Source: an uncultured Acidobacteriota bacterium
GTDB taxonomy: Bacteria > Acidobacteriota > Vicinamibacteria > Marinacidobacterales > Marinacidobacteraceae
Length of the DNA stretch: 41,406 nucleotides
Direction: 5' to 3'
NCBI GenBank assembly: GCA_964347715.1
Contig: CAYGAO010000001.1
Span: 1 to 41,406 of the forward strand
Below are positions 1,793 through 41,406 of this stretch, in pieces. A program made the translations under genes and the position numbers. The stretch's first letter is position 1, and every line of letters begins with the position of its first letter. The notes below the pieces were generated by a model that saw nothing but the letters and a program-made list of their open reading frames with translations, was not told the DNA's origin and ran no database searches.

Positions 1793-1800
1793 CTGAGCGG

Positions 1801-20859: not shown

Positions 20860-20935
20860 TGGTGGACGGCACGGGGTTCGAACCCGTGACCTCGGCATTG
20901 CGAACGCCGCGCTCTCCCAGCTGAGCTAGCCGCCC
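20860..20935 (-). tRNA. tRNA-Ala (anticodon CGC), CCA encoded
   Basis: Hand-folded cloverleaf. Acceptor stem GGGCGGC/GCCGTCC with G3:U70. D arm GCTCAGCTGGGAGAGC. Anticodon loop TTCGCAA. T arm ACGGGTTCGAACCCCGT. Confidence 0.93.
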
Positions 20936-20963: not shown

Positions 20964-22049
20964 CTAACTCGCGGGGCTCTCGCCACGCCGGAGCGCGTGA
21001 TCCGCGAGCACGAGGCACGCCATGGCCTCGACGATGGGCGCCGCGCGCGGGAGGACGCAGGGGTCGTGGCGCCCCCCGGCGGCGAGGGTGACCTCCTTGC
21101 CCCCGGAGTCCACGGTCCGCTGCGGGCGCCGGATCGTCGAGGGGGGCTTGAAGGCGACCCGGAAGACGATCGGCATCCCGGTCGAGATGCCGCCGAGCAC
21201 CCCTCCGGCGCGGTTCGTCTCGGTGGCGACGCGCCCCCCCCGGGCGACGAAGCGGTCGTTGTGCTCGCTGCCGAAGAGCTCGGTCCCGGCGAACCCCGAG
21301 CCGATCTCGAAGCCCTTGCTCGCGTTGATCGCGAGCATCGCCTTCGCGAGGTCGCTCTCGAGCTTGTCGAAGACGGGTTCCCCGAGGCCGACCGGGACGC
21401 CGAGCAGGGCGCACTCGACGACCCCGCCGACGGAATCGCCCGCGTCCCGGGCGCTCCCGATGAGCGCCGCCATCCGCGCGGCGGCGCCCTGGTCGGGGCA
21501 GCGCACCGGGTTCCGGTCCACCTCGGCGCGCGTCACCCGCTCGGGATCCACTTCGGCCTCGAGGTCGCGGACGCGCTTCACCCAGGCCGTGCACGAGACC
21601 CCGAAGCGCTCGGCGAGGAAGACCCGCGCCACCGCTCCGGCGGCGACATGCGCCACGGTCACGCGCGCCGAGGAGCGGCCGCCGCCGCCCGGATCCCGGA
21701 TCCCGTATTTCGCCGCGAAGGTGTAGTCCGCGTGCCCCGGCCGGTACACCGTTCGGAGTTCCTCGTAGTCCTCGGGCCGCTGGTCGCGGTTCCGGACGAC
21801 CATCGCGATCGGATGTCCGGTGGTGCGCCCCGAGATCGTCCCGGACTGGATCTCGACGCGGTCCGCTTCGGAACGCGAGGTGGTGAGCCGGCTCTGACCC
21901 GGGCGGCGGCGGTCCAGATCGCGCTGCACATCCGCCGCGGTCAGGGGCAGGCGCGGCGGGCAGCCGTCCACCACGACGCCGATCGCCGGCCCGTGGGATT
22001 CGCCCCAGGCGGTGACCCGGAACGCCTGTCCGAGGGTGCTACCGGGCAT
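20964..22049 (-). CDS. aroC: Chorismate synthase
   Basis: [46 protein letters not shown]. Confidence 0.95.
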
Positions 22050-24090
22050 CGGCGGCGAGGCGCGCCGCCTCGGTCATCGCGGCGACGGGAGGGGGCCGCC
22101 CGGTCCAGCGCGCGAACGAGGCGGCCGCCTGGTGGATCAGCATCCGGAGCCCCGGCGCCACCCGCTTCCCGAGCTCGCCGGCGCGCCGGAGCAGCGCGGT
22201 CGGGCGCGGTCGGACCACGAGGTCGAAGACGACCTCGTGGCCGGCGATCGCGGCGTCCGGGGCCGGGCAGGCGTCGCTGCCCGGCGCCATCCCCACCGGG
22301 GTGGCGTTCACCAGGATGTCGCCCGTGGCGCGACCGAGATCGGCGAACCGGCGCCAGCCGACCCCGAACTCCCCGGCGAGTTCCCGGGCGCGGTCGTCGC
22401 GGCGGGCGATCACGACGACCTCCGCGTCCGCCCCGGCGAGCCCGCACACCACCGCCCGCGCCGATCCGCCGGCGCCGAGGACGGTGGCGCGACGCCCGGC
22501 GAGGGGGGTCACCTCCCGGAGCGCCTGTACTGCCCCCGCCCGGTCCGTGTTCGCGCCGACGAGCCTGTCTTCCACCGCGACGATCGTATTCACGGCGCCG
22601 ATGCGCCGGGCTTCGGGGTCGAGCGCGTCGAGCAGCGGGATCACCGCGGTCTTGTGGGGGATCGTCACGTTCAGCCCCCGGATTCCGGCGAGCCGGGCCG
22701 CCGCCAGGAACTCGGCGAGCTCTTCCGGCGGGACCGGGAACGGCAGGTAGGCGGCGTCGAGCCCCAGCCGCCGGAACGCCGCCTCATGCATCGGCGGGCT
22801 CAGACTCTGGCGAATCGGGGATCCGACCACGCCGTACACCGGGACGGGGGCGAACAGCCCGCGCCCCCAGCGACGGTGGCGCGCGCGGATCGCGCCCGCC
22901 GTCAGCTGGCCGGAGGCCACCGCCGGGAGCCGGTCCGGCGGGGCGTAGGTCGTAACGGAGGCGCCCGCCGATCCCGCGATCACCCGGAGCGGGATACCGG
23001 GCCGGCCCATCGCGATCCCGATGAACCGCGAGCCGGCGGCGGCCTCGCGCCGGATCAGCCGGTACACCCGCCGGACCCCGGCCGCCCCCGAGGCGCGGAC
23101 CGCGACCTTCCGGGTGTGGGGGCGCATCGCCGCCATCCGCGCCGGAATCCCCTCCAGGTCGCGCGGGACGCCGTCCTGGTCGTGGAACGAGGCGATCAGT
23201 CGGGCGCCGGGGGCCGCTCTCCGGATCCGGGCGGCCGCCCGCCCGCCGCTCTCCCGGTCCGCCTCGGACTCCAGGTCCAGATATCCGGCGCCGAGCCGTC
23301 CGGCCTCGGCGAGCAGCCCGATTCGCTCCGCCTCCGCTCCGGCGTGGAGCCCCCCCTCGCTCCGGCGCCGGACGGTCACGATCAGTCGGGCGAGGAGCGG
23401 CGGGGGCGCCCCGGCGAGGATCGCCGCGAGCGCCTCCCGCGTGGGATCCCGCAGGGAGTCGAAGCGGAGCTCGACGAGATCGTCCGGCCCGGCCTCGGCG
23501 TTCGCCCGCTCGAGCCCCGAGCGCGCCTCGGCCGCCGTGGCTCCGGAGACCACGAGAGCGAGCCGAGGGCCGAAGTGCAGTGCCCGGAGCCGATCCGCAG
23601 CTTCCCCGGCGGCGTCGCTCCAGACATCCGCGTCCGCCGCTTCCCGGTAGAGGGGAGTCCGCCTCGCGAGCGCCGTCGCCGCTTCCTCCCCGGCGGGGAT
23701 CCCCGGAAGCGGCGGGCGGGCGGCGCGCTGTTCCGGCCGGGCGAGCCGCTCGGTCAGGACCGCGAGCGGCGCGCGGACCCAGTACACGGCGCCGAGCGCC
23801 CGCAGGCGAGGGAGGTTCTCCGGGCGCTCCACGATGCCGCCGCCGCAGTCCACCACGAGCCGGGTCCCCGAGATCGCCGCGAGCGCCGCGCTCTCTTCCT
23901 CGCGGAACCGCTCCCACCCGAACCGTTCCACGAACTCCGGGATCGGGCCGAGCCGCTCGGCGAGCGTCTCGTCGAGGCTGACGCGCGTCCAGCCCACCGC
24001 CGCCGCGAGCCGCCGGGCCGCGCGGCTCTTCCCCGAGGCGCGCGCGCCGACGAGGACGAGGTTCGGGAATTCCCCGGGCGGGCACATCAT
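22039..24090 (-). CDS. aroKDE: Trifunctional shikimate kinase / type I 3-dehydroquinate dehydratase / shikimate dehydrogenase fusion
   Basis: ATG 24090. The N-terminal domain is shikimate kinase ([16 protein letters not shown]). The middle domain is DHQase I (LIASFHD, RKVAVRA, IGIAMG). The C-terminal domain is SDH ([34 protein letters not shown]). Confidence 0.85.
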
Positions 24091-24299
24091 CAGCCTGTGG
24101 ATAAAGGGCCCCGCCTGGGAATCCGTCCTCGAAGAGATGGGGAACCCGGTCGTCCGGGGGGAAGCGGGGCGCTTTCCCCACCGGATGGCGGCCCGAATCG
24201 CTGGCGCGATCCGTTCCGCCCGCTTTCGCGGGGAGGGCGGACCCTCCCCGGCGGCGCTTCGCGCCGCATCGGCGCGCGAGGGACTTTCTCCACCGCCTG
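24091..24299 (-). mobile_element. MITE-like structured repeat, copy 3 (complete, 209 bp)
   Basis: It occupies exactly the space between the aroA stop (24300) and the aroKDE start (24090). My hand alignment to copy 2 gives about 20 mismatches and no gaps. Flanks are TCAT and TCAA. Confidence 0.9.
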
Positions 24300-25595
24300 T
24301 CAACGCCCGGGGTCCCCGGAGACGCGCGCGCCGAGTCCGGCGAGCGCTCCCCAGAACCCCGGATACGACTTCCGCACCACTTCGGGAGTCGCGATCCGCA
24401 CTCCGGCGACCCGGATCCCGACGAGCGCGAGCGCCATGGCGATCCGGTGGTCCCCGCGGGGGTCCAGCTCCGCCGCCCGGAGCGTCGCCGGGGCGATCCG
24501 CATCCCGGAGTCCCCGGCGGAGACGCGCCCGCCGAGGCGCGAGAGTCCCTCGGCGAGCGCCGCGATCCGGTCGCTCTCCTTCAGCCGCAGATGGCCGATT
24601 CCGGAGATCCGCGTCGGCGTCCGGGCGAAGGAGGCGATCGCGGCGAGGTTCGGGACGGCGTCGGGCATCGAGCCCATCTCGACCTCCACGCCGCGGAGGC
24701 GCCGGGGGCCCCGGACGGTGACCCGCGCGCCGGCGTCCGCGCGCGCTTCGCCCACCTCGCAGCCCATCCGGGCCAGCACCTCGGGAAACCGCCGCTCCCC
24801 CTGCGGCGATCCGGGGTCGAGCCCGGAGACGGTGACCGTCCCCGGGGCGAGCGCCGCCGCCGCGAACCAGGTCGAGGCGGCCGTCCAGTCACCCGAGACC
24901 CGGTGGACGCCGGGCCGGTAGCGCGCCCCGGCGCCGATCCCGAAGGATCGCGCCCCCTCGCGCCGGACCCGGACCCCGCAGCGGGCCATCACCGAGACGG
25001 TGAGGTCGAGATAGGGGGCGGACACCGGCTCGCCGGCGAGCTCGACCGCGACGGCGCCCCGGGCCCGGGGCGCGGCGAGCAGCAGCGCGCTCGCGAACTG
25101 GCTGCTCTCCCCGGCGGCGACCCGGACCCTCCCGCCCCGGAGCGTCCCGGAGCGCACCCGGACCGGGGCGTGGCCCGCCGTGGTCTCCACCTCGGCGCCG
25201 AGCTGTTCGAGCGCCTCGACGAGCCCGGAGATCGGTCGCTCGGGGATCCGCCCGCTCCCCCGGATCGAGACCGTCGCCGGCAGCGTCGCCGCCGCCGCGG
25301 TCAGGAACCGGAGCAGCGTCCCCGATTCGCCCACCGAGACCGAGACCTCGGAACCGGCCGGGTGGTCGGCGAAGCCGCGCACCCGGGTCTCGTCGCCGTC
25401 GCTCTCGATCCGGGCGCCGAGGGCGCCCAGCGCCTCGGCCGCGGCGCGGAGGTCGTCGTTTTCGGGGATCCCGAGGATGCGGCTCTCCCCCCCGGTGAGC
25501 GCCGCCGCGAGGAGGAGCCGGTTCGCCTCGTACTTGCTGCCGGGGGGCGTCACCGACGCCCGGATCGGGCCGGGCGCGGGGCCGATCCCGATCAC
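24300..25595 (-). CDS. aroA: 3-phosphoshikimate 1-carboxyvinyltransferase (EPSP synthase)
   Basis: GTG 25595. VTPPGSKYEANRLLLAAAL, and C-terminal LKESDRI, DHRIAMA. Confidence 0.92.
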   Translation of the reverse strand: MIGIGPAPGPIRASVTPPGSKYEANRLLLAAALTGGESRILGIPENDDLRAAAEALGALGARIESDGDETRVRGFADHPAGSEVSVSVGESGTLLRFLTAAAATLPATVSIRGSGRIPERPISGLVEALEQLGAEVETTAGHAPVRVRSGTLRGGRVRVAAGESSQFASALLLAAPRARGAVAVELAGEPVSAPYLDLTVSVMARCGVRVRREGARSFGIGAGARYRPGVHRVSGDWTAASTWFAAAALAPGTVTVSGLDPGSPQGERRFPEVLARMGCEVGEARADAGARVTVRGPRRLRGVEVEMGSMPDAVPNLAAIASFARTPTRISGIGHLRLKESDRIAALAEGLSRLGGRVSAGDSGMRIAPATLRAAELDPRGDHRIAMALALVGIRVAGVRIATPEVVRKSYPGFWGALAGLGARVSGDPGR

Positions 25596-25603
25596 GGCCC
25601 GAG

Positions 25604-25813
25604 CCGGCGGTGGTGAAAGTCCCCCGGGGCGCAGACGCGGCGCGGAGCGCCGCCGGGGAGGGTTCCCCCTCCCCGCGAAAGACGGTGGGGCGAATCGCGG
25701 AAGCGATTCGCCCCACCTGCCCGTGGGAAGAGTGCCCCGCATCCCCGAATCGGGTTGGATTCCGGTTCCCTTCCCGAAGCGGTGCGGATGCGGGGGACTT
25801 TTTCCACGGGCTG
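25604..25813 (+). mobile_element. MITE-like structured repeat, copy 4 (complete, divergent subfamily, 210 bp)
   Basis: It has the same order of hairpins as the other copies. The termini are near-perfect inverted repeats: GGTGGTGAAAGTCCCCC and GGGGGACTTTTTCCACGGG. The inner stem is changed in a compensatory way (GGTGGGG...CCCCACC). Confidence 0.85.
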
Positions 25814-25818
25814 CTGGC

Positions 25819-26931
25819 TCAGAGCCCGATGCGGGCGAGCCCGGAGGCCACGACCGGCGACGGCAGCGGGAAGGACACCACCGCTCGTCCCCCGTCGCTC
25901 TCCTGCCGCGCGCTGCCGATCGCCCGCAGCACGACGAACCGGGGCTCGCCACCGCGCGCCTTCTTGTCGCTCGCCATCGCGCGCACCACGGCGGCGCGGT
26001 CCATCCCGCCTCCGGCGCGGCGGGGCAGCCCGAGCGACGCGACCGCGGCCTCGAGCCGCGCCTCCGCCGTGGCGGCGAGGAAGCCCGCCTCCCGCGCCAT
26101 CCGGCTCTCCGCGATCATCCCGATCGCCACCGCGGCGCCGTGGGGGAGCCGGTAGCCGGACGCGCGCTCGAGCCCGTGGCCGACGGTGTGCCCGAAGTTC
26201 AGCACCTCGCGGAGCCCGGCTTCGTGCTCGTCCGCCCGGACCACCGCGGCCTTGATCCGGACGCTCGCCGCGATCAGCCGGGTGAGCGCCGCGTCCTCGC
26301 CGGCGAGGAGCTTCTCGACGCTTCCCTCGATCTCGGCGAAGAACGCCCGGTCGCTGGTCGCGGCCATCTTGAGCGCCTCGGCGAGCCCGTTCCGGAGCTC
26401 GGCCTCCGGAAGCGTGGCGAGGAGCGCGGTTTCGGCGAGCACCGCCGCCGGCTGGCGGATCACCCCGATCCGGTTCTTCCCGTGCCCGGTGTTCACCCCG
26501 ACCTTCCCCCCGACCGACGCATCCACCGCGGCGAGAAGCGTCGTCGGCGCGGCCACGAAGGGCACCCCCCGCAGCCAGGTCGCGGCGACGAAGCCGGCCA
26601 GGTCCGTCGCCACCCCGCCGCCGAAACCGAGGATCACGGTGTCCCGCCCGAGGCGGAGCGATGCGAGCTCGTCCTCGAGGCGTTCCTTCTCGGCCCGGGT
26701 CTTCGTCTCCTCGCCGGAAGGAACCTCGAGGACCGGGGTCTTCGCCGGGAGCACGGAGGCGAGGCGCTCCCGGTGGAAGCCGAGCGCCCCGGCGTCGGCG
26801 ATGACGGCCACCCGGCGCCCGCCGAAGCGCCCGGCGAGCAGCGCCGGCAGCGCGTCGAGCGCCGCCGGCCCGACGAGGATCTCGTAGGCGGTGTCCCGCC
26901 CCGGTGTCTCGACCGGGACGCGGGTCGTCAC
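25819..26931 (-). CDS. aroB: 3-dehydroquinate synthase
   Basis: GTG 26931 overlaps the DAHPS stop (GTGA). LGFGGGVATDLAGFVAATWLRGVPFVAAPTTLLA.VDASVGGK, NFGHTVGH. Confidence 0.93.
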   Translation of the reverse strand: MTTRVPVETPGRDTAYEILVGPAALDALPALLAGRFGGRRVAVIADAGALGFHRERLASVLPAKTPVLEVPSGEETKTRAEKERLEDELASLRLGRDTVILGFGGGVATDLAGFVAATWLRGVPFVAAPTTLLAAVDASVGGKVGVNTGHGKNRIGVIRQPAAVLAETALLATLPEAELRNGLAEALKMAATSDRAFFAEIEGSVEKLLAGEDAALTRLIAASVRIKAAVVRADEHEAGLREVLNFGHTVGHGLERASGYRLPHGAAVAIGMIAESRMAREAGFLAATAEARLEAAVASLGLPRRAGGGMDRAAVVRAMASDKKARGGEPRFVVLRAIGSARQESDGGRAVVSFPLPSPVVASGLARIGL

Positions 26932-28034
26932 GCCGGTTCCGGCGCCGGGACCCCTCCCGCCGACGCGACGGCGAGACTCTCCGCGCCACCCTCGAGCACC
27001 CCCCGCCCGAGCGCGCCCCCGAGTCTGCGGAGATCCGTCAGCAGGTTCGCGAACTGATGCGGATAGAGCGACTGGTCGCCGTCGCTCAGCGCCACCGAGG
27101 GGTCCGGGTGCACCTCGACGATCAGGCCGTCGGCGCCGGCGGCGACCGCGGCGAGCGCGAGCGGCGGGACGAGCGTCTTGTTGCCGGCGCTGTGGCTCGG
27201 GTCGGCGATCACCGGCAGGTGCGTCTCCTGCTTCAGCACCGCGATCGCCCCCACATCGAGCGTGTTCCGGTAGGCGGTCTCGAAGGTGCGGATCCCGCGC
27301 TCGCAGAGGATGACCTGCTCGTTGCCCTGGAGGATGTACTCGGCGGCGAGCAGGAACTCGCGGATCGTGTTCGCCATCCCGCGCTTCAGGATGACCGGGA
27401 TGTCGATCCGCGCCGCCTCCCGGAGGAGGTCGAAGTTCTGCATGTTCCGGGCGCCGATCCGCACCACATCCACGAGCTCGGCGGCCGGGGCCAGGTCGCG
27501 CAGGTCCATGACCTCGGTCTCGACGAGCATCCCGGTGCGCTCGCGGATCCGCTTCAGGATCTCGAGCCCGGGCGCGCCGAGCCCCTGGAACGAGTAGGGG
27601 GAGGTGCGCGGCTTGAACGCCGAGGCGCGCATGATCTCGAGGCCGAGATCCCGGAGCATGAGCGCCGAGGCGAGACCCTGCTCCTCGCTCTCGAGCGCGC
27701 AGGGGCCGCCGACGATCACGAGGTCGGAGCTCCCGAGCTCCTGGCTGCCGATCCGGATGCGGGTGCTCGCCTTCCGGTGGGTCTTGTTCGCGAGCCGGTA
27801 GGGCTTCGCGAGCCCGTAGACCTGCTCGACCCCGGGCTGGGTGCGCCAGAACGCCTCGGTCTCGCCGGAGAGATCCCCGAGCACATGGATCTGCGACCGG
27901 TCCTCGCCCCGGTAGATCGCCCGGTCGAGCGCCTTGTCCTCGATAAGGCGGATGAGATGCGAGATGTCCTGCTCGCTGGCCCACGGGTGCAGGATGAGCA
28001 CCATGGTGGCGGGCTCGAGGGGCGGCGTCATCAC
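26928..28034 (-). CDS. aroF: DAHP synthase, type I-beta, with N-terminal ferredoxin-like/ACT regulatory domain
   Basis: [56 protein letters not shown]. Confidence 0.9.
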
Positions 28035-28609
28035 GGATCCTCGCGGGTGAGGTCGAGAAAGTTCCGGACGAGTCGGCGACCCTCCGGGGTGAGGATGGAT
28101 TCGGGATGGAATTGAACGCCCCAGAGCGGTTCGCTCCGGTGCCGAAGCCCCATCACTTCACCGTCGTCCTCGGAGCGCGCGGTGACCTCCAGTTCGGCGG
28201 GCAGCGGCTCGTCGGCGACGAGCGAGTGGTAGCGCGTCGCGGCGAACGGGTCGTCAAGGCCCGCGAACAGTTCCGCGCGATTATGGCGCACCGGGGAAGT
28301 CTTGCCGTGGACGAGGCGGCGCGCGCGGCGGATCCTTCCGCCGAACGCCCGCGCCACCGACTGGTGTCCGAGACAGACGCCGAGGATCGGAACCTTCCCG
28401 GCGAGGGTCCGGACGAGCTCCACCGAGATTCCGGCGCGGTCCGGGACCCCCGGGCCGGGCGAGATCACGATCCGGCGCGGGGCGAGCGCTCGCACCTCGG
28501 CGACCGTCAGCGCGTCGTTCCGGACGACCCGCGGCGCCCCGCCGAGCTCGCCGAGCAGTTGCACCAGGTTGAAGGTGAAGGAGTCGTAGTTGTCGAGGAC
28601 GAGGGTCAT
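28031..28609 (-). CDS. trpG: Anthranilate synthase component II (glutamine amidotransferase)
   Basis: MTLVLDNYDSFTFNLVQ, ISPGPG, ILGVCLGHQ, GVQFHPES. Confidence 0.93.
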   Translation of the reverse strand: MTLVLDNYDSFTFNLVQLLGELGGAPRVVRNDALTVAEVRALAPRRIVISPGPGVPDRAGISVELVRTLAGKVPILGVCLGHQSVARAFGGRIRRARRLVHGKTSPVRHNRAELFAGLDDPFAATRYHSLVADEPLPAELEVTARSEDDGEVMGLRHRSEPLWGVQFHPESILTPEGRRLVRNFLDLTREDP

Positions 28610-28639
28610 CGGGAGCGAGGTGGGGCCGTCAGGCGTCAG

Positions 28640-28848
28640 CAGCCGGTGGACGAGGCGCCCCGCAGGGGAATCCGTCCTCGAAGAGATGGGGAACCCCGTC
28701 GTCCGGGCGGATGCGGGGCGCTTTCCCCACCGGATGGCGGCCCGAATCGCTGGCGCGATCCGCTCCGCCCTCCTTCGCGGGGAGGGAGGACCCTCCCCGG
28801 CGGCGCTTCGCGCCGCGTCGGCGCCTGAGGGACCTTCTCCACAGCCTG
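28640..28848 (-). mobile_element. MITE-like structured repeat, copy 5 (complete, 209 bp)
   Basis: Direct TCAG repeats at 28636-28639 and 28849-28852. The right one contains the trpE stop codon. The element sits between trpE and trpG. Confidence 0.9.
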
Positions 28849-30360
28849 TCAGGCGAGCCCCGAGTGGGCCATGCGGAGCGCGGCCAGCACCGCGTCCGCC
28901 TTCCGGCAGCTCTCCTCGTACTCGGCGGCCGGGTCCGAGTCGGCGACCACGCCCCCGCCGGCCTGGAAGGTGCCGATCCCGTCCTGCGCCACCAGGGTGC
29001 GGATGGCGATCGCGGTGTCGGAGGCGCCGCTGTAGGAGAAGTACCCCACCGCCCCGCCGTACACCCCGCGTCGCTCGCCCTCGAGATCCTCGATGATCTC
29101 CATCGCCCGGATCTTGGGCGCTCCCGAGAGCGTGCCGGCGGGAAAGGTGGCGCGCAGGCAGTCGAAGGCGTCGAGCCCGGGGCGCACCCGGCCCCGGACC
29201 CGCGAGACGAGGTGCATCACATGCGAGTAGCGCTCGATGCTCATGAAGTCCTCGACCTCGACCTGGCCGTAGCCGGCGACGCGGCCGACATCGTTCCGGG
29301 CGAGATCCACGAGCATCAGGTGTTCGGCGCGCTCCTTCTCGTCGGCGAGGAGCTCCCCGGCGAGCCGGGCGTCCTCCCCGGGGGTGCGCCCCCGGGGGCG
29401 GGTGCCGGCGATCGGGCGGGTCTCGACCGCGCCCGAGGCGGTGCGGGTCATCATCTCGGGGGAGGCGCCGGCGACCACGAGGCCGCCGAAATCGAGGTAG
29501 TACATGTAAGGAGAGGGATTCACCACCCGGAGCGCCCGATAGAACCCGAACGGGTGGACGGACATCGGCGTCCGGAACCGCTGCGAGGGGACGACCTGGA
29601 TGATGTCGCCGGCGGCCACATGCTCCTTGGCGCGGCGCACCATCTCGAGATATCCGGCGCGGGTCCGGTTCGACTCCGGTTCCGGGAAGGACGCGTTCGC
29701 CGCCCGGACCTCGCGCTCCGGTAGCGGCGCCCGCAATTCGGCGACGGCGGCGGCGATCCGCGCCTCGGCCTCGTCGAAGGCCGCATCCGCCGCCCTCGGA
29801 TCGGGGACGCGCGCGTTCGCCACCACCTGGATCACGTTCCTCGCCCGGTCGAAGACGAGGACCGTGTCGGTGAGCAGGAAGGCGGCGTCGGGCAGCCCGA
29901 GCGGGTCCGCCGCGGTCTCGGGCAGCCGCTCGAAACGGCGCGCGGCGTCGTAGCCCAGGTAGCCGACGAAACCCCCGTGGAACGGGGGCAGCCCCTCCAC
30001 CGGCGCCGGGCGGACCTCGGCGAGCATCTCCCGCAGCACCTCGAGGGGATCGGCGTTCGGGAGCGCCTCGGTCCGGCCCTCCCGGAGAAAGCGGCGCCGG
30101 ACCTCGTTCCCCCGGCTCTCCACGAGGACCAGCGGGTCCGATCCGAGAAACGAGTAGCGTGCGACCGCCTCGCCCCCTTCGACGGATTCCATCAGGAAGG
30201 CCGGGCCGCGGTTCCCCACCCGGAGGAAGGCGGAGACCGGGGTGTCGCAGTCGGCGAGGATCTCCCGGCGGACCGGGATCAGGTTCCCCCGGCGGGCGAG
30301 CGCCCGGAATTCGGAGCGCGACGGAACGAGCGGCGGATCGGACGCGGTGGCGGCAGGCAC
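28849..30360 (-). CDS. trpE: Anthranilate synthase component I
   Basis: LIPVRREILADCDTPVSAF, a C-terminal chorismate-binding domain, GTLSGAPKIRAMEII, GGAVGY. Confidence 0.94.
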   Translation of the reverse strand: MPAATASDPPLVPSRSEFRALARRGNLIPVRREILADCDTPVSAFLRVGNRGPAFLMESVEGGEAVARYSFLGSDPLVLVESRGNEVRRRFLREGRTEALPNADPLEVLREMLAEVRPAPVEGLPPFHGGFVGYLGYDAARRFERLPETAADPLGLPDAAFLLTDTVLVFDRARNVIQVVANARVPDPRAADAAFDEAEARIAAAVAELRAPLPEREVRAANASFPEPESNRTRAGYLEMVRRAKEHVAAGDIIQVVPSQRFRTPMSVHPFGFYRALRVVNPSPYMYYLDFGGLVVAGASPEMMTRTASGAVETRPIAGTRPRGRTPGEDARLAGELLADEKERAEHLMLVDLARNDVGRVAGYGQVEVEDFMSIERYSHVMHLVSRVRGRVRPGLDAFDCLRATFPAGTLSGAPKIRAMEIIEDLEGERRGVYGGAVGYFSYSGASDTAIAIRTLVAQDGIGTFQAGGGVVADSDPAAEYEESCRKADAVLAALRMAHSGLA

Positions 30361-30804
30361 GGCAGCGGCCGAATTGTAGGAGCGGCGCCGGATCTCCCTC
30401 CGCCGTCCGGCGGCGGAACTCGGCGGTGGACCGGGAGATCGGGGAAGTCCGGGCGGGTCGGGACGCGATCGCCGCCGTGATCGGGAACCGGCCTCCGGCC
30501 TTCCCGTCCGGGACGCCCCGCGGGAGGAACGGGTGATCGGCCGGGGGCGCCGAGGTGGTCGGACTGCTCGTGCGGCCCTCGCGCGCCGGGGAGAAATCCC
30601 CGTTCGCGCCGAAGGGCGGGGCGGCGGCGCCCGGATGGTTCGGTTTCGTTACCGATCGCGCTTCGGGCGCGCGGCGCGCGGATGGCGGGCGCGACCGCCA
30701 GCTCGAGGTCGCGACAGCCGTGGCGCGCGACGACCCCCACCGCTCGACCAGGCGGAAACCCGCGTGGCGGCGCGGTCGGAGGACGCGAGCGCCTCCGAAA
30801 GGGG

Positions 30805-32211
30805 CTACCGCCCGATCAGCCCGGCGAGCGCCCGGACCGCCCGCGCCGCCTCCGCCCCCGAGGCGAAGTCCCGCGGGCGGAACGACCCTTCGTCCGAGAC
30901 GGGGAGGAGGCCGAGCGCGACGACGACGCCTGCCGCCTCCCGGTCCCGGTGCCCCGGGGGGAGGTCGGCCAGCTCGAGTCCGGACGCCTTCGCCCGCGCC
31001 GCCTCCAGCGTCTCGGGAGCGAGCGCCCGGAGCCCCGCCGCGAGCGACTCGGCGAGTTCGGACCGGCGCACGAAGGCGCGCGGCTTGAAGGTGTGATCGG
31101 GGAAGAGGCTCAGGTAGCCCGCGCCGACCGAGGCCACGATCAGGTTCTGCGCCCAGCTCCGCTCGATGTCGATCGCGATCACCGGCGTCCCGGACCCGTT
31201 CGCGTCTCCCGCCCGTTCGGCAGAAGCCCCGAGCTCCACGGCGAGGAGCGCCGCGAGTTCTTCACGGGTCACCCGCTCCGCTTCCGGAATCTGCGCGTAA
31301 CTCTCCGGCAGCCTCGCGATCTCGAGACGGAGCCCGAGCGCCCGGGCGCGCTCGGCCAGATCGGCGTGGCGGCCGAGTCGGGCGTCCGCCGTCATCCGGT
31401 CGAGGCGTTCGAGACTCCCGGAGAGATCCCCCGCGGCCTCGAGCATCCCGGCGGCGAGGAGCCCGGCGGTCAGCGCCTGCCGCTCGCCCGCCGCCGGACT
31501 CGCCGCGACCGCGTCGAACCACTCGCGGGCGCTCTCACCCGTTCCGGCGGCCTCGGCGGCCTCGAAGAACAGATCGGGAGAATCGGGGATCACCTCGATC
31601 GCCGCCCGGTAGGCCTCGGTGACGGCGGCGGGACCGGCCCCGCCCCGCGCCGCCTCGCGGGCCGCGTCGAGGCGGGACTCGGCGATGTCGAGGGTCAGCG
31701 CGGGCAGGCGTTCGGTGACCAGCGCAGCGCCGGGTTCGAGTTCGGCGAGCCGGCGGAGCCGCGCGAAGAGCGCCTCCGGATCCGGCCCGTCGAGCACCGT
31801 GAGCACGCTCCCGAGCGCGGGGAGGGAGTCCGGTGGAGAGTGCCGGAGCGCTCGTTCGAACAGGGGGTCGGCCGCCTCGATCCGGCCGCTGCGGAGCGCG
31901 AGAAAGCCCGCGGCGGTCAGCACGCCGGGATCCTCCGGGGCGCGCTCCCGGAGCCCCGCGAGGAGCCCCCGGGCCTCCCCGAGCCGCCCGGAGACGACGA
32001 GGCGCCAGCCCTCGGCGAGGGTGCTCCCCTCGCGGGCGGCGAGCCCGGGTCCCGGCGTCGGCGTCCGGTCCCCGACATGCCGCCAGCCGTCGAACGGCAC
32101 GACGGGAACCTCCGGCGCCGGCCGGGCGCAGCCCGAGACGAGCGAGAGCGCGACCAGCCCGAGGGCGACCTCGGGGAGGCTGGCCGCGCGACGCCGCCGG
32201 AGCGAACACAT
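30805..32211 (-). CDS. Lipoprotein with TPR-like region and C-terminal SLH-like repeats
   Basis: Lipobox LVSGC. C-terminal segments resemble S-layer homology repeats: RVTREELAALLAVEL, FPDHTFKPRAFVRRSELAESL, SFRPRDFASGAEAARAV. Confidence 0.65.
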   Translation of the reverse strand: MCSLRRRRAASLPEVALGLVALSLVSGCARPAPEVPVVPFDGWRHVGDRTPTPGPGLAAREGSTLAEGWRLVVSGRLGEARGLLAGLRERAPEDPGVLTAAGFLALRSGRIEAADPLFERALRHSPPDSLPALGSVLTVLDGPDPEALFARLRRLAELEPGAALVTERLPALTLDIAESRLDAAREAARGGAGPAAVTEAYRAAIEVIPDSPDLFFEAAEAAGTGESAREWFDAVAASPAAGERQALTAGLLAAGMLEAAGDLSGSLERLDRMTADARLGRHADLAERARALGLRLEIARLPESYAQIPEAERVTREELAALLAVELGASAERAGDANGSGTPVIAIDIERSWAQNLIVASVGAGYLSLFPDHTFKPRAFVRRSELAESLAAGLRALAPETLEAARAKASGLELADLPPGHRDREAAGVVVALGLLPVSDEGSFRPRDFASGAEAARAVRALAGLIGR

Positions 32212-32224
32212 GCTCCGAGTCTAG

Positions 32225-32335
32225 CGGGCTGTGGAGAACGTCCCTCGCGCGACGACGCGGCGCGGAGCGCCGCCGGGGAGGGTCCTCCCTCCCTGCGAAA
32301 GACGGCGGAACGGATCGCGCAAGCGATTCGGGGGC
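32225..32335 (+). mobile_element. MITE-like repeat, copy 6 (left arm only, forward)
   Basis: It matches the first ~110 nt of the family, up to the GGATCGC-GCAA-GCGATTC hairpin, and then diverges. The outer flank is CTAG (32221-32224). Confidence 0.85.
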
Positions 32336-32479
32336 CTCGCCTCCGGCGAGAAGCCGCGAGACGCTCCTGCCCGGCGCAGGGCGTCGCCGCAGGGGAGGGT
32401 TCCCGAAGAAAGCCGCCGCCCCGAGGGGCGGCGCCGGGGATCGGCCCGGAGAGATCGCCGCCCCCTCCGGCGCGGCCAC

Positions 32480-32485
32480 TAGAAT
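32480..32485 (+). promoter_or_regulatory. Candidate -10 box TAGAAT placed 6 nt before the ATG (possible leaderless transcript)
   Basis: TAGAAT at 32480-32485, then CCCGAA, then ATG 32492. No Shine-Dalgarno sequence is visible. Confidence 0.3.
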
Positions 32486-32491
32486 CCCGAA

Positions 32492-33382
32492 ATGCGCCAT
32501 CTCCCGCTTCTTCTCGCTCTCTTGTGGTCGACCTCCGGCGGCGCGGCCCCGCAGTCCGAAGACGCCGAACGCCGGATCCTGGAGCACATCCGCGACACGA
32601 TGCAGCCCGGCGAGCGCGTCCTGCTCTCCCCGCTCGTCGAGCGCTTCCAGGCTCCCGACGAGCAGCGCGCCCTCGACCGGCTGAACGATGTGTTCTTCCG
32701 GATGCCGCTCTTCATCGTCGAGTTCGAGGGCCGGGAGGGGCGGCTCCCCTCGCTCGCCGAGGTCTCCGGCCAGTTCTCGCTCTACGGCGAGGAGGCGGCC
32801 GACATCGTGCTCCGCATCATGGAATCCGATCCCCGCGTCCCGAAGTTCCTCGTCCGGGACGGGCAGGGCGCGCTCGTCTCGATCGATCAGGATCTGGTGC
32901 GGGCGGACGAGCGGTTCGCGCGCGCGGTGAGCCGCAGCCTGACCGGTTGGGAAGGGCGGACGCTCCCCGAGATCGCCGGCGAGCGCTTCGGCGGCGGCGA
33001 GGCGGCGGTGGCGGACCTGATGGAAGACGCCACCCTCGTCTATGTGTGGTTCACGGATTGTCCGCCCTGCGTCCAGATCGCTCCGGTTCTCGGAGCCCTC
33101 CACCGGGATCTCGCCGGCGACGGGCTCCGCATCGTCGGGCTGAACGCCGACCGGGTGCTCAAGCTGCCCTACACCGACGAGGACCGCGCGGCGCGTCAGG
33201 AGAAGGCGGGGGTGAGCTTCGAGAACCTGCACCTGACCGACGAGGCGAGGGCCGCGCTCGGGAACGTGAACATCTTCCCGACCCTGTTCCTCGCCCGGCG
33301 GGACGGGACGATCGTCCGCCACTTCGTGAACTTCCAGCCGCGCGAGACGCTCGAACCCGCGATCCGGGAACTCCTCCCGTAG
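32492..33382 (+). CDS. Secreted TlpA-like thioredoxin-fold protein (CPPC) with N-terminal domain of unknown function
   Basis: Signal peptide MRHLPLLLALLWSTSGGAA. C-terminal thioredoxin fold: VYVWFTDCPPCVQIAPVL...IVGLNAD...FPTLFLARRDG. Confidence 0.8.
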   Translation: MRHLPLLLALLWSTSGGAAPQSEDAERRILEHIRDTMQPGERVLLSPLVERFQAPDEQRALDRLNDVFFRMPLFIVEFEGREGRLPSLAEVSGQFSLYGEEAADIVLRIMESDPRVPKFLVRDGQGALVSIDQDLVRADERFARAVSRSLTGWEGRTLPEIAGERFGGGEAAVADLMEDATLVYVWFTDCPPCVQIAPVLGALHRDLAGDGLRIVGLNADRVLKLPYTDEDRAARQEKAGVSFENLHLTDEARAALGNVNIFPTLFLARRDGTIVRHFVNFQPRETLEPAIRELLP

Positions 33383-33385
33383 CAG

Positions 33386-33498
33386 GGCGGCCCGAATCGC
33401 TTGCGCGATCCGTTCCGCCGTCTTTCGCGGGGAGGGCGGACCCTCCCGGGCGGCGCTTCGCGTCGCGTCGGCGCGCGAGGGACTTTCTCCACAGCCTG
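33386..33498 (-). mobile_element. MITE-like repeat, copy 7 (left arm only, inverted relative to copy 6)
   Basis: Its reverse complement matches the first ~113 nt of the family and breaks at almost the same internal point as copy 6. The outer flank is GTAG (33499-33502). Confidence 0.85.
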
Positions 33499-33548
33499 GT
33501 AGCGCGCCGGGGCGCCGTCGCCCCCGGCGCGTGACCGCGCTCCGCGTC

Positions 33549-33577
33549 TTGACAAGGGTTCACTCACATCTTATACT
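33549..33577 (+). promoter_or_regulatory. dnaK promoter TTGACA-17 nt-TATACT with overlapping partial HAIR-like (HspR operator) sequence
   Basis: TTGACA at 33549-33554 and TATACT at 33572-33577, in a locally AT-richer stretch. CTTGACA-N7-ACTCACA at 33548-33568 matches 10 of 14 positions of CTTGAGT-N7-ACTCAAG. Confidence 0.6.
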
Positions 33578-33645
33578 TCGCGGCAACTAAGGACCGGGTG
33601 TTCCGGTCCTTGATCTCTACTCTTCATCAGGAGTTTCAGGAAGGC

Positions 33646-35571
33646 ATGAGCAGGATCATCGGCATCGACCTCGGCACCACGAACTCGGTGGTCGCGGTGA
33701 TCGAGGGCGGCCAGCCCACGATCATCCCGAACGCCGAGGGTGGGCGGACCACCGCTTCGGTCGTGGGCATCTCGAAGTCGGGCGAACGGCTCGTCGGCGA
33801 GGTGGCGAAGCGGCAGGCGATCACGAACCCGAAGAACACGGTCTTTTCGATCAAGCGGTTCATGGGGCGGCGCTTCGACGAAGCCGCCTCGGAGCGCGAC
33901 CAGGCCCCCTACGAGATCCGCAGGAAGGACGACGGCGGGGTCGAGGTCGAGATGGGCGACAAGCGCTACACCCCGCCCGAGATCTCGGCGATGGTGCTCC
34001 AGAAGATGAAGTCGTCCGCCGAGAAGTACCTCGGCGAGACCGTCGAGCGGGCGGTGATCACCGTGCCGGCCTACTTCAACGACTCCCAGCGCCAGGCGAC
34101 GAAGGACGCCGGCGAGATCGCCGGGCTCGAGGTCGTCCGGATCGTGAACGAGCCGACGGCCGCCGCGCTGGCCTACGGGCTCGAGAAGCAGAAGAGCGAG
34201 AAGATCGCCGTGTACGACTTCGGCGGCGGCACCTTCGACATCTCGATCCTCGAGGTGGGCGAAGGGGTCGTCGAGGTGCGTTCCACGAACGGCGACACCT
34301 ACCTCGGCGGCGACGACCTCGACAAGCGGGTCATGGACTGGATCGTCAGGGAGTTCCGGAAGTCGGACGGGATCGATCTCGGCGCCGACCGGATGGCCCT
34401 CCAGCGGCTCCGGGATGCGGCGGAGAAGGCGAAGGTCGAACTCTCGACCACCCACGAGACCGAGATCAACCTGCCGTTCATCACCGCGGACGCTTCGGGC
34501 CCGAAACATCTCACCCTGACGCTCTCGCGCTCGAAGCTCGAGGCGCTCATCGGGGACCTCCTCGAACGGACCCGGAAGCCCTGCCTCCAGGCGCTCGAGG
34601 ACGCGGGCCTCCGGAACGACTCGGTGGACGAGGTGGTGCTCGTCGGCGGCACCACGCGGATCCCGCGCGTCCAGGAGCTCGCGAAGGAGATCTTCGGCGC
34701 CGAGCCCCACCAGGGGGTGAATCCCGACGAGGTGGTGGCGCTCGGCGCCGCGATCCAGGCCGGGGTGCTCGGCGGGGATGTGAAGGATCTGCTCCTCCTC
34801 GATGTGACCCCGCTCTCGCTCGGCATCGAGACGCTCGGCGGAGTCTTCACCCGGCTGATCGAGCGGAACACGACGATCCCGCACAAGGCGAACGATGTGT
34901 TCTCGACGGCGAGCGACAACCAGCCCCAGGTGGAAGTCCATGTGCTCCAGGGCGAGCGGTCCATGGCGTCGGACAACCGCACGCTCGGCAAGTTCACCCT
35001 GACCGGGATCCCGCCAGCGCCCCGCGGGATGCCGCAGATCGAGGTCACCTTCGACATCGATGCGAACGGCATCGTGAACGTCTCCGCGAAGGACCGGGCG
35101 ACCGGCCGCGAGCAGGCGATCACGATCACCGCCTCGAGCGGCCTCACGAAGGAAGAGATCGAGACGATGAAGCAGGAGGCGTCCCGGAACGAGGAAGCCG
35201 ACAAGACCCGCCGCGAGGAAGTGGAGTTCCGGAACGAGACCGATTCGCTCGTCCACCAGGTCGAGAAGCTCCTGAACGAGAACCGCGACAAGGTCGAGGA
35301 ACCCGACCGCACCCGGATCGAGAGCGCGATCTCGACGGCGCGGGCCGCGCTCGCCGGAGACGACCTCGACAAGATCCGCGCGGTCCGCTCCGAGGTGGAG
35401 TCGGCGAGCCACCGACTCGCCGAGGTCATGTACCAGAAGACGGCGGCGTCCGCGCCGGGCGAGGCCGGAGCCGACGCGCCGCCGCCTCCGCCGCCGCCGC
35501 GACGGAAGAAGAGCAAGGGGAACGGCGCCGCGGACGACATCATCGACGCGGAGGTCGTGAACGACAGCTGA
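33646..35571 (+). CDS. dnaK: Chaperone DnaK (Hsp70)
   Basis: [23 protein letters not shown] (here [11 protein letters not shown]), [17 protein letters not shown] lies upstream of ATG 33646. Confidence 0.97.
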
Positions 35572-35774
35572 CAGCCGGTGGATAGAGCGCCCTGCATGGG
35601 AATCCGTCCTCGAAGAGATGGGGAACCCCATCGTCCGGGCGGATGCGGGGCGCCTTCCCGACAGGATGGCGGCCGGAATCGCTTGCGCGATCCGTTCCGC
35701 CCGCTTTCGCGGGGAGGGAGGACTCTCCCCGCACCCCTCCGCGTCGGCGCGCGAGGGACTTTCTCCACCGCCTG
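35572..35774 (-). mobile_element. MITE-like structured repeat, copy 8 (complete, 203 bp; net 6 nt shorter than the 209-bp copies)
   Basis: Direct CTGA repeats at 35568-35571 (this one includes the dnaK stop) and 35775-35778. The element sits between dnaK and dnaJ. Confidence 0.9.
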
Positions 35775-35791
35775 CTGAGGCGCTGGCGGCG

Positions 35792-36925
35792 ATGCCTCCT
35801 TCCCCGGACTACTACGAGCTCCTGGGAGTCGAGCGCACCGCGGATGTTCTCCGGATCCGCCGGGCCTATCGGCGTCTCGCCCGCCGGATGCATCCCGACC
35901 TGAACCCGAACGACCGGGTCGTCGCCGAGCAGTTTCGGGAGATCCGGCGAGCCTTCGAGGTGCTCGGGGACCCCGAGCGGCGCGCCGACTACGACCGCCT
36001 CGGGGAGACCGAGCCGGCGCCCCCGCGGGCCGGCGCGGTCCACTACGGGTTCGCCGGCTTCGACTTCGGCCGGGAGCCGGCGCCGGACGACGGGGCGCTC
36101 AAGGAGATCCTGGGCCATCGCCCCGAGGCGCCGTCCGGGCCGTCGCCCGCCGAGGCCGACCTGCACGCGCGGGTCCGGATCTCCTTCGTCGAGTCGCTCG
36201 CGAGCCAGCAGGTCCGGCTCCGCGTGAACCGGCGGCTCGCGTGCGAGCCCTGTGGCGGTCGCGGCGAGCGGCCGGTCGCCGAGGCGGCCGCGCCGGGGTT
36301 CGAATGCCCCGACTGCGGCGGCGGCGGACGGCGTCTCCGCCACCACGGTCACATGGTCTTCCAGCGGCCCTGTCGGCGCTGCCGGGGCCGGGGGGCCCTC
36401 TACCTGGCCCGGTGCGGCGCCTGCGCCGGCCGCGGGTATCGCGAGCGGCCGGTCCGGGTGGTCGCGCGCCTTCCCGCGGGCGTCGAGGGCGGCGCCACCG
36501 TAGTCGTCGAGGGGGCCGGCCACGAGCGGCGGTCGGGCGAGCCGCCGGGCGACCTGAAACTCCATGTCGAGGTCGCCCCGCACGCGGTCCTCGAACGTCG
36601 CGGCGACAATCTGATCTGTCCGCTGCCCCTGACCTTCGCCGAGGCGTCGCTCGGCGGCCGGATCGAAGTGCCGACGCTCACCGGTCCGGTCACGGTCCGC
36701 CTGCCGCCCGGGGTGCAGCCGGGAACCCGGATCCGCCTCGTCGGACGGGGGGTCCCCTCGACCCGGGGCGAAGGGCGCGGCGACCTCTTCCTCGAGGCGC
36801 GGGTCGAAATCCCGAAGATCCACGACGACCGCTCGCGCGATCTGGTGCGCGAACTCGAGCGCCGCTACCCGGCTTCTCCGCGCGCCGCGCTCGCCGACGA
36901 GCTCGGCGCGGAGAAACCCGCGTGA
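35792..36925 (+). CDS. dnaJ: Co-chaperone DnaJ
   Basis: J domain DYYELLGV...[14 protein letters not shown]. Four CxxCxGxG zinc motifs: [32 protein letters not shown]. Confidence 0.93.
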
Positions 36926-37332
36926 GCGCCGAACGCCGCCGCGGCGTCTACATGATCAGCGCGGTGGCGGAGCTCTTCGACATCCACCCGCAGACGCTCC
37001 GGCTCTACGAGCGCGAGGGGCTGCTGCAACCGGCGCGGACCGAGGGGAACACCCGCGTGTACACCGACGAGGATCTCGAGCAGCTCCAGTCGATCCTGAA
37101 CCTGCGCGAACTCGGGGTGAACCTCGCGGGAGTGGACATCATCCTGGACATGCGCCGGAAGATGCGGCGCATGCAGGAGGAGATCGCCGAGTTCACCGAG
37201 TTCATCCACCGCGAGCTGGCGCGGGAGGAACACGCGCTGAGCGACCGGGCGCGGAACGCGCTGGTGCGGCTGCCCCGGCGGGAAATGGTCCGGACCGGCG
37301 AGCCGCGCGGCCCCGGAGGCGAAGGACGCTGA
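36922..37332 (+). CDS. hspR: MerR-family heat-shock repressor HspR
   Basis: YMISAVAELFDIHPQTLRLYEREGLLQPARTEGNTRVYTDEDLEQL. GTG 36922 overlaps the dnaJ stop; ATG 36952 is the alternative start. Confidence 0.85.
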   Translation: MSAERRRGVYMISAVAELFDIHPQTLRLYEREGLLQPARTEGNTRVYTDEDLEQLQSILNLRELGVNLAGVDIILDMRRKMRRMQEEIAEFTEFIHRELAREEHALSDRARNALVRLPRREMVRTGEPRGPGGEGR

Positions 37333-37424
37333 AGCGCGCGGGCCGCCGGTCGCCGGGCGCCGGGTGCCCGGATTGCGCCGGTACCGGCTGGAAGCCGGCG
37401 CTCCGCTCCGACGGATCCGAGGCG

Positions 37425-38075
37425 GTGGCTCCCTGTCCCTGCCGGCGGCCGGCCCCGCCGACGAGCCTGGTGGAGATCGGCGTGCCCCGGATCGTGGCGG
37501 AGAACGCCCGCTTCGACCACTTCGACGAGCTGTCGGATTTTCCCTCGCTGGGGCGGGCCAAACGGCGCCTGATCGAGTGGTCCGACGCCTGGCCCGATGT
37601 GCCGGCGGGCGTCGTGCTGACCGGCCCCTGCGGGGTGGGGAAGACGCACCTGGCGGTGTCCGCGCTCCGCCGCCTCCTCCTCGAACGACGGATCGCGGCG
37701 CGGGCGCGGTTCGTCTATGTCCCCCAGTTGCTGCGCGAGCTGCGCGGGAGCTGGAAGGATCCGGAACGGACCGAGGAGGGAGTGCTCGCCGGGGTCACCG
37801 GCGCCGACATCGTCGTCTTCGACGGGCTCGGGGAAGGGATGGGCCAGTCCTGGGCCGAGGAGCAGCTCCTCTACATCCTGAAGCGGTGCTTCGGCGACGG
37901 CGGACGGCTGATCTGCACGACCGTCTATCCCCTGTCTCCCGCTGCCGGGGAGAAGGCGCTCGGCGAGCTGATCACGGTGCGCGCCGTCTCGGTCCTCCGG
38001 GAGGCCTGCCAGTTCGTCCGGATGCTCGGAAACGACTACCGCGATACTGTCCTGAGCCCCGGGCTCGGCGTCTGA
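37425..38075 (+). CDS. DnaC/DnaI/IstB-like AAA+ ATPase (putative helicase loader); probable N-terminal zinc ribbon lies upstream of this first canonical start
   Basis: Walker A GPCGVGKTHLA, Walker B IVVFDGLGE. In-frame upstream codons 37365..37440 encode CPDCAGTGW...CPC. Confidence 0.75.
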   Translation: MAPCPCRRPAPPTSLVEIGVPRIVAENARFDHFDELSDFPSLGRAKRRLIEWSDAWPDVPAGVVLTGPCGVGKTHLAVSALRRLLLERRIAARARFVYVPQLLRELRGSWKDPERTEEGVLAGVTGADIVVFDGLGEGMGQSWAEEQLLYILKRCFGDGGRLICTTVYPLSPAAGEKALGELITVRAVSVLREACQFVRMLGNDYRDTVLSPGLGV

Positions 38076-38110
38076 GCCGCTCGGGCCGCACGAACGGAGG
38101 AGATTCGGCC

Positions 38111-38944: not shown

Positions 38945-39091
38945 CGCCCCCCGGGGCGCGCCGTTTCCGGCGTGCCCCCCGGCCGGCGATTCGGGCGTCT
39001 CGGGGCCGTTCGCGCCGGCGCGCCGCGCCCGGTCGGCGTGGCCGGGCTCCCCACCGTATTCCTCCGGTCGGCGCGGTGCGCTCCCGGCGTT

Positions 39092-39123
39092 CGCCGGGGG
39101 TGTCCGAATTCGACACCCCGGCG
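39092..39123. promoter_or_regulatory. 12-bp-stem inverted repeat CGCCGGGGGTGTC-CGAATTC-GACACCCCGGCG (terminator or operator)
   Basis: Read directly from the sequence. It lies in the 222-bp spacer between the creatininase-family gene and the AAA+ gene. Confidence 0.3.
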
Positions 39124-39166
39124 CGCTACTCTTCTCCCGGTTCCGAACACCGACACGGAGAGGGCG

Positions 39167-41245: not shown

Positions 41246-41253
41246 CCGGATAG

Positions 41254-41406
41254 CAGGCTGTGGTGAAAGTCTCCCGGGCACAGACGCGGCGCGCAGCGCC
41301 GCCGGGGAGGGTGTTCCCTCCCCGCGAAAGCGGGCGGAACGGATCGCGCAGGCGATTCGGGCCGCCATCCGGTGGGGAAAGCGCCCCGCATCCGCCCGGA
41401 CGATGG
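41254..41406 (+). mobile_element. MITE-like structured repeat, copy 9 (forward, cut by window end)
   Basis: CAGGCTGTGGTGAAAGTC followed by the same hairpin series. It starts 8 nt after the stop of the AAA+ gene. Confidence 0.88.

Follow-up and report, generated by a model that had tools for sequence, protein, structure and literature searches.

The window, i.e., the whole 41,406-nt stretch of DNA that was analyzed, had a G+C content of 74% and contained an aro cluster (including aroB, aroA, and an aroK-aroD-aroE fusion gene) as well as trpE and trpG; the aro cluster ended with the chorismate synthase gene, shortly downstream of which lay a tRNA gene (20863–20935, minus strand). The aroB–aroA spacer was occupied in its entirety by a 210-base stretch (25604–25813, plus strand; copy 4), which lay antisense to the operon and carried four hairpins: three that were short and rich in G+C, and a long one on the 3′ side. 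Nine copies of this repeat were detected on the two strands of the window by nhmmer profile search, covering 3.7% of it and measuring 209–222 nt when full length:

1 to 116, minus strand: copy truncated at the window start; it belongs to the long form that has the 12-nt internal duplication (see below)
1584 to 1792, plus strand: full A copy, with CTGA/CTGA target duplication, starting directly past a stop codon
24091 to 24299, minus strand: full copy of the main type (A), between aroA and the aroK-aroD-aroE fusion gene, in sense orientation, with flanking 4-mers TTGA and ATGA
25604 to 25813, plus strand: copy 4, a full-length member of MITE subfamily B, nhmmer E = 1.2e-55
28640 to 28848, minus strand: full A copy, between trpE and trpG, in sense orientation, with CTGA/CTGA target duplication
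32225 to 32332, plus strand: 5′-half copy, left terminus plus hairpins 1 to 3 only
33366 to 33498, minus strand: 5′-half copy
35572 to 35774, minus strand: full-length A copy without hairpin 1, with TCAG/TCAG target duplication
41254 to 41406, plus strand: copy cut by the window end, B-like at its 5′ end and A-like in the remainder

Next to these copies were found (i) a 17-nt sequence (GAAGATCGCCGGGGCCC) repeated in perfect tandem (3.8 copies, 100% match) at 118–182, abutting the 5′ end of the copy at 1–116, and (ii) a sigma-70-like near-consensus promoter at 33549–33577 (TTGACA, 17 nt, TATACT; 11/12), which was placed ~50 nt past the copy at 33366–33498 and upstream of a gene starting near 33598.

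Copy 4 displayed a modular organization, as listed below from its left to its right end:

25604 to 25626, plus strand: left terminal inverted repeat (CCGGCGGTGGTGAAAGTCCCCCG), with 3 mismatches to the family terminus CAGGCTGTGGAGAAAGTCCC
25637 to 25653, plus strand: hairpin 1, GCGGCGC-GGA-GCGCCGC, read in the sequence
25654 to 25675, plus strand: hairpin 2, CGGGGAGGG-TTCC-CCCTCCCCG, with the core GGGGAGGG-TTCC-CCCTCCCC at 25655 to 25674 enclosed by an outer C/G
25684 to 25717, plus strand: hairpin 3, B-type, GGTGGGGCGAATCGC-GGAA-GCGATTCGCCCCACC, a perfect 15-bp stem
25719 to 25811, plus strand: long 3′ hairpin of the minimum-free-energy fold, formed by pairing of the right terminus with a TIR-like segment from inside the element
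25791 to 25813, plus strand: right terminal inverted repeat, ending GGGGGACTTTTTCCACGGGCTG

Between the two ends of copy 4, 15 of 17 positions matched, with one wobble in addition. Its predicted fold reached −146.9 kcal/mol (z = −8.2 relative to dinucleotide shuffles; z = −7.6 for the other strand). The window contained nine instances of the hairpin-2 pattern where only 0.01 were expected, which excluded chance as the source of its recurrence. The hairpin features described by an earlier note on this DNA were present in the sequence at the positions it gave, while the strongest helix, formed between the internal segment and the 3′ end (25719–25811 in copy 4), was absent from that note. Its statement that three stems recur in all copies held for most of them, the copy at 35572–35774 having no hairpin 1, and its remark on a GNRA-type loop found no support as a conserved trait: only 15 of 31 hairpin-3 loops were of GNRA type, and the commonest loop was GCCA. 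The terminal pairings that it had listed belonged to the main type: CTGTGGA/TCCACAG was present there and replaced by CGGTGGT/TCCACGG in copy 4, and GTCCCTCG/CGAGGAC matched the main-type sequence and was broken in B-type copies.

Further copies were reached via aroA orthologues and via a protein-database search with translations of the four frames that were open in the element. The latter search returned at least 57 spurious ORFs and led to six more loci; its matches were only spurious ORFs running through copies of the element, some of these database "proteins" being fusions of the element-derived peptide to real domains. A scan of genome contigs with a degenerate pattern gave 65 loci, 64 of which were chance matches; the only real one (L009) was a Vicinamibacterales metagenome-assembled genome with three copies in 8 kb. 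In total, 36 distinct copies were present in the 280 kb of sequence gathered, and the copy sets used below (32–36 copies) came from about five genomes, with many copies from one metagenome assembly.

Four metagenome runs contained the locus; their assemblies were DNA-like, the depth being flat and the contigs extending to 107 kb. The unique flanks had a depth of 6–20, the main-type copy (24106–24307) one of 8,000–48,000, and the copy-4 type one of 700–5,800, so that the element stood ~1000-fold over its flanks. Since related strains also add to this ratio, it is an upper limit for a single genome. Hundreds of contigs from the four runs broke at 24091 and at 24299/24302, the ends of the copy at 24091–24299. 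The element is a dispersed repeat of very high copy number, and its ends are sharp. The JGI metagenome, viral, plasmid, and phage collections, searched by contig scans and BLAST, yielded no copy; as far as these collections go, the family is restricted to its lineage.

The terminal and flanking sequences were compared across 27 full copies. These copies shared terminal inverted repeats of ~20 bp, with CAGGCTGTGGAGAAAGTCCC at the left end and TCCACAGGCTG at the right end (reverse complement CAGCCTGTGGATAAAGCGCC; the shared termini are also written CAGGCTGTGGAGAAAG). The 4-mers flanking the element were identical in 12 of the 27 copies, whereas permutation gave 3.08 (P < 1e-5), and another 8 copies matched at 3 of 4 positions; duplication lengths of 2, 3, and 5–8 gave no match among full copies. 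A 3-bp TNA target and longer regular duplications had also been considered and were dropped, the flank analysis favoring exactly 4 bp. The duplicated target was Y-Y-R-R, mostly CTGA, TCAG, or TTGA, and copies abutted stop codons because TGA lies within the commonest target, CTGA. Three copies were arranged head to tail in L073 with one TCAG between neighbors, in agreement with contig joints stepping back 209 in the runs.

Some insertions deviated from the simple 4-bp duplication: (i) on either side of copy 4 stood a 10/12 repeat of the junction between the aroB stop and the aroA start (25592–25603 and 25819–25830), (ii) the trpE–trpG copy of L068 had an 18-nt flanking repeat of the trpG start (ATGACyTTCGTCCTCGAy; ~7037–7054 and ~7268–7285), and (iii) the copy at 28640–28848 had an extra 7-nt repeat CGCCTGA (28629–28635). 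Each of these longer flanking duplicates restored a gene end or a gene start.

Full copies measured either 209 nt or 220–222 nt and carried no gene of their own. A 12-nt internal duplication (GGGGAGGGGTGC) just ahead of hairpin 2 separated the 209-nt from the 221-nt size class; roughly half of all copies, from A as well as B, contained it (columns 60–71 of structure alignment A1, see below; e.g., the copy at 1–116 of the window, L009, and L072–L077). Two copies of L075 (11095–11384 and 12962–13238) were 277–290 nt long and had an extra ~60–70 nt within the 3′ hairpin region. Five "5′ halves" were observed (window 32225–32332 and 33366–33498; L009 472–594 and 1070–1195; L073 17993–18103), all ending just ahead of the internal TIR-like segment (alignment columns ~131–137), and two of them (L009c and L073e) were apparently still flanked by matching 4-mers; no solo 3′ half was seen among the copies gathered.

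The copies fell into two subfamilies, A and B, both of which were common to several genomes. The 5′ end of copy 4 and its "swapped" hairpin 3 recurred in L009c, L066a, L066b, and L075e, and copy 4 was 84–91% identical to these B-type copies but only 73% to the main-type copies of its own window. The compensatory swap that the earlier note had read in copy 4 was thus a real difference between A and B, inherited and shared with other genomes rather than a local event. From A to B, hairpin 3 changed in a compensatory manner at 105:134 (C:G to U:A), at 108:131 and 109:130 (A.G to G:C), and at 112:127 (G.U to A:U). A copies shared 91.5% identity between genomes and 90.6% within one genome, compared with 57% at third codon positions of aroA between those hosts; an identity of ~91% across hosts with saturated synonymous sites requires that the element as a whole be constrained or that it have spread horizontally in recent times.

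Orthologous sites differed in presence or absence of the element at aroB–aroA, aroA–aroK, and trpE–trpG. At aroB–aroA, five relatives displayed the uninterrupted gene overlap GGGCTGTGATCGAG and hence an empty site, while in the window copy 4 split the junction, the sequence of which was found on both sides of it (ATCGGGCTCTGA and CTCGGGCCGTGATC). The aroA–aroK genes overlapped, leaving the site empty, in L067 and L069, and the site was filled in the window. The trpE–trpG site was filled in the window and L066 (sense) and in L067 and L068 (antisense), and L069 and L070 had no insertion there. The inverted termini, together with the 4-bp target duplication, the subfamilies, and the mobility, identified the repeat as a MITE, that is, a non-autonomous DDE transposon. 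In L074 (10001–11584), an ADP-ribosylglycohydrolase gene was seemingly split into two ORFs by adjacent MITEs (10528–10748 and 10799–11018), and therefore insertions would not be strictly intergenic.

A decayed insertion sequence (IS) with the family termini (left CAGGCTGTGGAGAAAGTCGG, right CCCTTTCTTCCACAGCCTG) was identified at 10144–11892 of L072. It encoded a frameshifted DUF772 transposase, for which Pfam gave DUF772 only. A 232-aa fragment of this transposase matched the NCBIfam model IS1182 (NF033551) best, with 70.5 bits and E = 1.3e-19, a score far below the cut-off of 270 that left IS1182 membership of the transposase unestablished; the second-best NCBIfam match was IS5 (NF033581) with 43.1 bits. 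The 4-mers flanking this IS (TTAG and ACAG) did not match; the IS was itself interrupted by a MITE copy, and a run of ~36 G, either real or an assembly artefact, was present in the decayed IS immediately upstream of the MITE (L072 10186–10221). P0172, where a transposase ORF included element-derived peptide, was considered as an autonomous partner and rejected: it was a MITE inserted in a decayed IS, one that does share the termini. No intact transposase with the family termini was seen in the loci gathered, and the decayed IS with shared termini was taken as a candidate parent only. A DDE transposase of the IS1182/IS5 type would mobilize the MITE in trans.

The interior of the MITE was unrelated to that of the candidate parent IS, and the same termini were found around unrelated interiors in L067 and L068; therefore, there were several MITE families with one set of ends. 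Another element of ~180 nt with related termini (CAGCCTGTGAAAAAAGTCAC ... CTTTCTCCACAGACTG) and an unrelated interior was located at 11330–11508 of L068 and at ~8690–8870 of L067, occupying other aro-cluster spacers in more distant relatives.

Pairing was evaluated on structure alignment A1 of 32 copies. RNAalifold retained only three short hairpins from A1, with a negligible covariation term (−0.27 kcal/mol), and explicit pair counting with controls was used because this term alone was negligible. Hairpins 1 to 3 plus the 3′ hairpin had 89.9% of cells paired, and the whole structure contained 11 pairs changed on both sides, compared with 5.0 ± 1.5 after shuffling (0/500) and 0–7 in slid controls. 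These 11 changes were unevenly distributed: (i) the 3′ helix (138–161 with 211–235) accounted for 8 pairs, with 141:232 occurring as U:A, C:G, and G:C, (ii) hairpin 3 accounted for 3 pairs, and (iii) hairpins 1 and 2 had none. When the diverged L067 and L068 copies were added, hairpin 3 showed five covarying pairs in four lineages compared with 0–2 in slid controls, and its outer stem took no fewer than four distinct sequences, all of them paired, across four lineages. Hairpin 1 (96.8% of cells paired in the 32 copies) and hairpin 2 (96.5% paired in A1, with eight loop sequences) were conserved and no more, which says nothing for or against structure. The claim that pairing is kept through change was thus borne out for hairpin 3, as well as for the 3′ hairpin that had escaped the earlier note, and not for the invariant hairpins 1 and 2.

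End-to-end closure of the element into one multi-branched fold was also tried and rejected, since it gave 82.8% pairing and 2 covarying pairs compared with 86.3% and 8 for the internal 3′ hairpin. The segments formerly described as pairing termini were the terminal inverted repeats of a transposon, and the internal 3′ hairpin was the better supported partner arrangement; the termini would covary anyway because one transposase must recognize both ends.

Variation at the 62 stem sites of the alignment was compared with that at the 159 other sites. Private singletons, which arise after insertion, hit both classes alike (27/62 stem sites vs. 70/159 elsewhere; P = 1.0), breaking pairs in 13 cases and keeping them in 8. 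Variants shared by at least two copies, from which two of the three L073 array copies had been removed and which could still partly reflect local duplication, were depleted in stems (10/62 vs. 82/159; P = 9e-7). From this contrast it follows that constraint acted on propagating lineages and that resident copies decayed roughly neutrally; such a comparison of singleton and shared variants separates selection on the propagation of an element from selection on its host.

The best explanation of these data, and a highly probable one, is a MITE family of Vicinamibacterales that has no gene of its own and the stems of which are constrained in transposing lineages. The element consists of a 5′ part of ~135 nt (left end plus hairpins 1 to 3) and a 3′ part of ~100 nt that forms an inverted-repeat hairpin from the internal TIR-like segment and the right end, with the hairpins being DNA palindromes that belong to the element. 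It inserts at Y-Y-R-R tetranucleotides, with duplication of those 4 bp. Stems are kept in lineages that continue to transpose, with the differences between A and B compensated, and after insertion they decay like the rest of the element. The comparison of singleton and shared variants suggests that the interior hairpins, besides the terminal repeats, matter for mobility; against a cis role of hairpins 1 to 3 stands the point that typical DDE transposases require only terminal repeats. Most likely, with about an even chance of being correct, the stems would be needed in cis for mobility and would represent neither a strand-specific RNA nor a host function at each locus; during transposition they may work either as DNA structures or as palindromes to which protein binds, which would agree with reports of stem-loop recognition by transposases of the IS1182 family. 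We hold it possible, at a clearly lower level of confidence, that hairpins 1 to 3 and the 3′ hairpin act as a structured-DNA (or transient RNA) cis cofactor of an IS1182-type transposase in a structure-guided transposition. Such a cofactor, if real, would explain the reported hairpin targeting of IS1182 elements, the variable-length duplications, and the ~91% identity across genera.

Three other explanations were weighed against this constrained MITE family. The stems might be under no selection at all, the palindromes deriving from a recent master copy and the compensation arising from template switching or intra-hairpin conversion and from TIR-derived arms. Such an origin would fit with most covarying cells being subfamily markers (few events inherited by many copies), with the TIR-like arms of the 3′ hairpin that must covary for transposase recognition, with hairpins 1 and 2 never covarying, and with the neutral decay of resident copies. 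However, shared variants were about threefold rarer at stem sites and singletons were not, while mutation alone predicts equal treatment of both; moreover, the four or more different paired outer stems of hairpin 3 in four lineages and the ~91% identity between hosts with saturated synonymous sites argued against it, and we consider it rather improbable. Still less probable is selection of the stems as RNA (a REP- or Correia-like mRNA stabilizer, processing site, terminator, or insulator that would act after transcription inside operons or 3′ UTRs), with the host keeping the copies for that reason. Copies did occur right after stop codons and within operons, folds were very stable on both strands, and the stems of hairpins 1 to 3 were the least variable part of the element (entropy of 0.11–0.19 vs. 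0.33–0.65 elsewhere), but the CTGA/TCAG target accounts for the position after stop codons, and singletons were not depleted in stems and mostly broke pairs. The orientation between co-directional genes was balanced (about 7–11 sense vs. 9 antisense), and single-step departures from Watson-Crick pairing comprised 29 G:T and 23 A:C, without the G:U excess of an RNA. The trpE–trpG copies of L067 and L068 were 86% identical compared with 58–65% at flanking third codon positions; they were, however, truncated at opposite ends, which makes their orthology uncertain and this sign of constraint only a hint. Only a tRNA passed Rfam in the window, and the best Rfam match over the copies had E ≥ 0.08, far below gathering scores. 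Terminator and promoter readings of the copies were rejected, since no intrinsic terminator (hairpin followed by a T-run) was found inside any copy within 22000–41406 and no copy resembled a sigma-70 promoter. Of the earlier proposal that selection acts on structure, either as RNA or as single-stranded DNA, the retained pairing thus stood and a role of single-stranded or structured DNA in transposition is plausible, while the RNA half was disfavored; an orientation-independent RNA effect may nevertheless exist.

Least credible of all was a REP/BIME or IS200/IS605 (HUH) element with RAYT/TnpA recognition hairpins, or a guide-RNA module of TnpB or IS110 type. The several subterminal hairpins, the extragenic location, the great abundance, and the strong fold would be expected of REP or HUH elements, but the terminal inverted repeats were accompanied by a symmetric 4-bp duplication in both orientations, whereas HUH elements make none, and these target duplications largely refuted that origin. 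The element of 209–222 nt exceeded the 20–40 nt of REPs and had no GTAG or CGTC head, an element with the same termini encoded a DUF772/DDE-type transposase, and there was no omega-RNA or bridge-RNA match in Rfam. REPs are 20–40 nt in size, begin with GTAG or CGTC as their head, and do not duplicate the target (PMC3733652). The MITE family resembled REP/BIME elements in being extragenic, palindromic, very numerous, and often located at gene 3′ ends, and it differed from them in its length, inverted terminal repeats, and 4-bp duplications.

Bacterial MITEs that derive from or are mobilized by IS5/IS1182-type DDE transposases constitute a general class that has been surveyed (PMC11602168). The present family agreed with this class in being small, non-coding, and multi-copy, with inverted termini, a short duplication, a mostly intergenic and polymorphic location, and termini shared with an IS. 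Unlike typical bacterial MITEs, it reached ~3.7% of the window and ~1000-fold depth over the flanks, had an interior unrelated to that of its candidate parent and as conserved across genera as its termini, and was modular (5′ three-hairpin module plus 3′ inverted-repeat hairpin). The literature search found no published description of it. This MITE family of soil Vicinamibacterales (Acidobacteriota) stands out through its density and through inner hairpins that are as conserved as the termini.

Correia elements (CREE) of Neisseria are likewise abundant 100–160-bp inverted-repeat elements with a short target duplication and stable hairpins, and they are often co-transcribed. Their duplicated target is TA, they contain promoter elements along with a site for IHF, and their RNA form is cleaved by RNase III; the termini, the target (Y-Y-R-R, 4 bp), and the host phylum of the present family all differ from theirs.

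[quoted passage not shown] The present family normally makes a clean 4-bp duplication, unlike IS1272, while the variable outcomes of the latter recall the 7-, 12-, and 18-nt duplications beside some copies here; by analogy, an IS1272-like stem-loop recognition may account for these longer duplications.

The high copy number explains the shattered short-read assemblies of these abundant soil bacteria, in which contigs break at each copy, as well as the dozens of spurious proteins produced by gene callers in this lineage. For repeated DNA with compensated hairpins, the anatomy of a transposon should be checked first. At copy 4, aroB and aroA, which normally overlap and are translationally coupled, were parted by a 225-nt, very stable structure, making this locus a natural experiment on what an operon tolerates.
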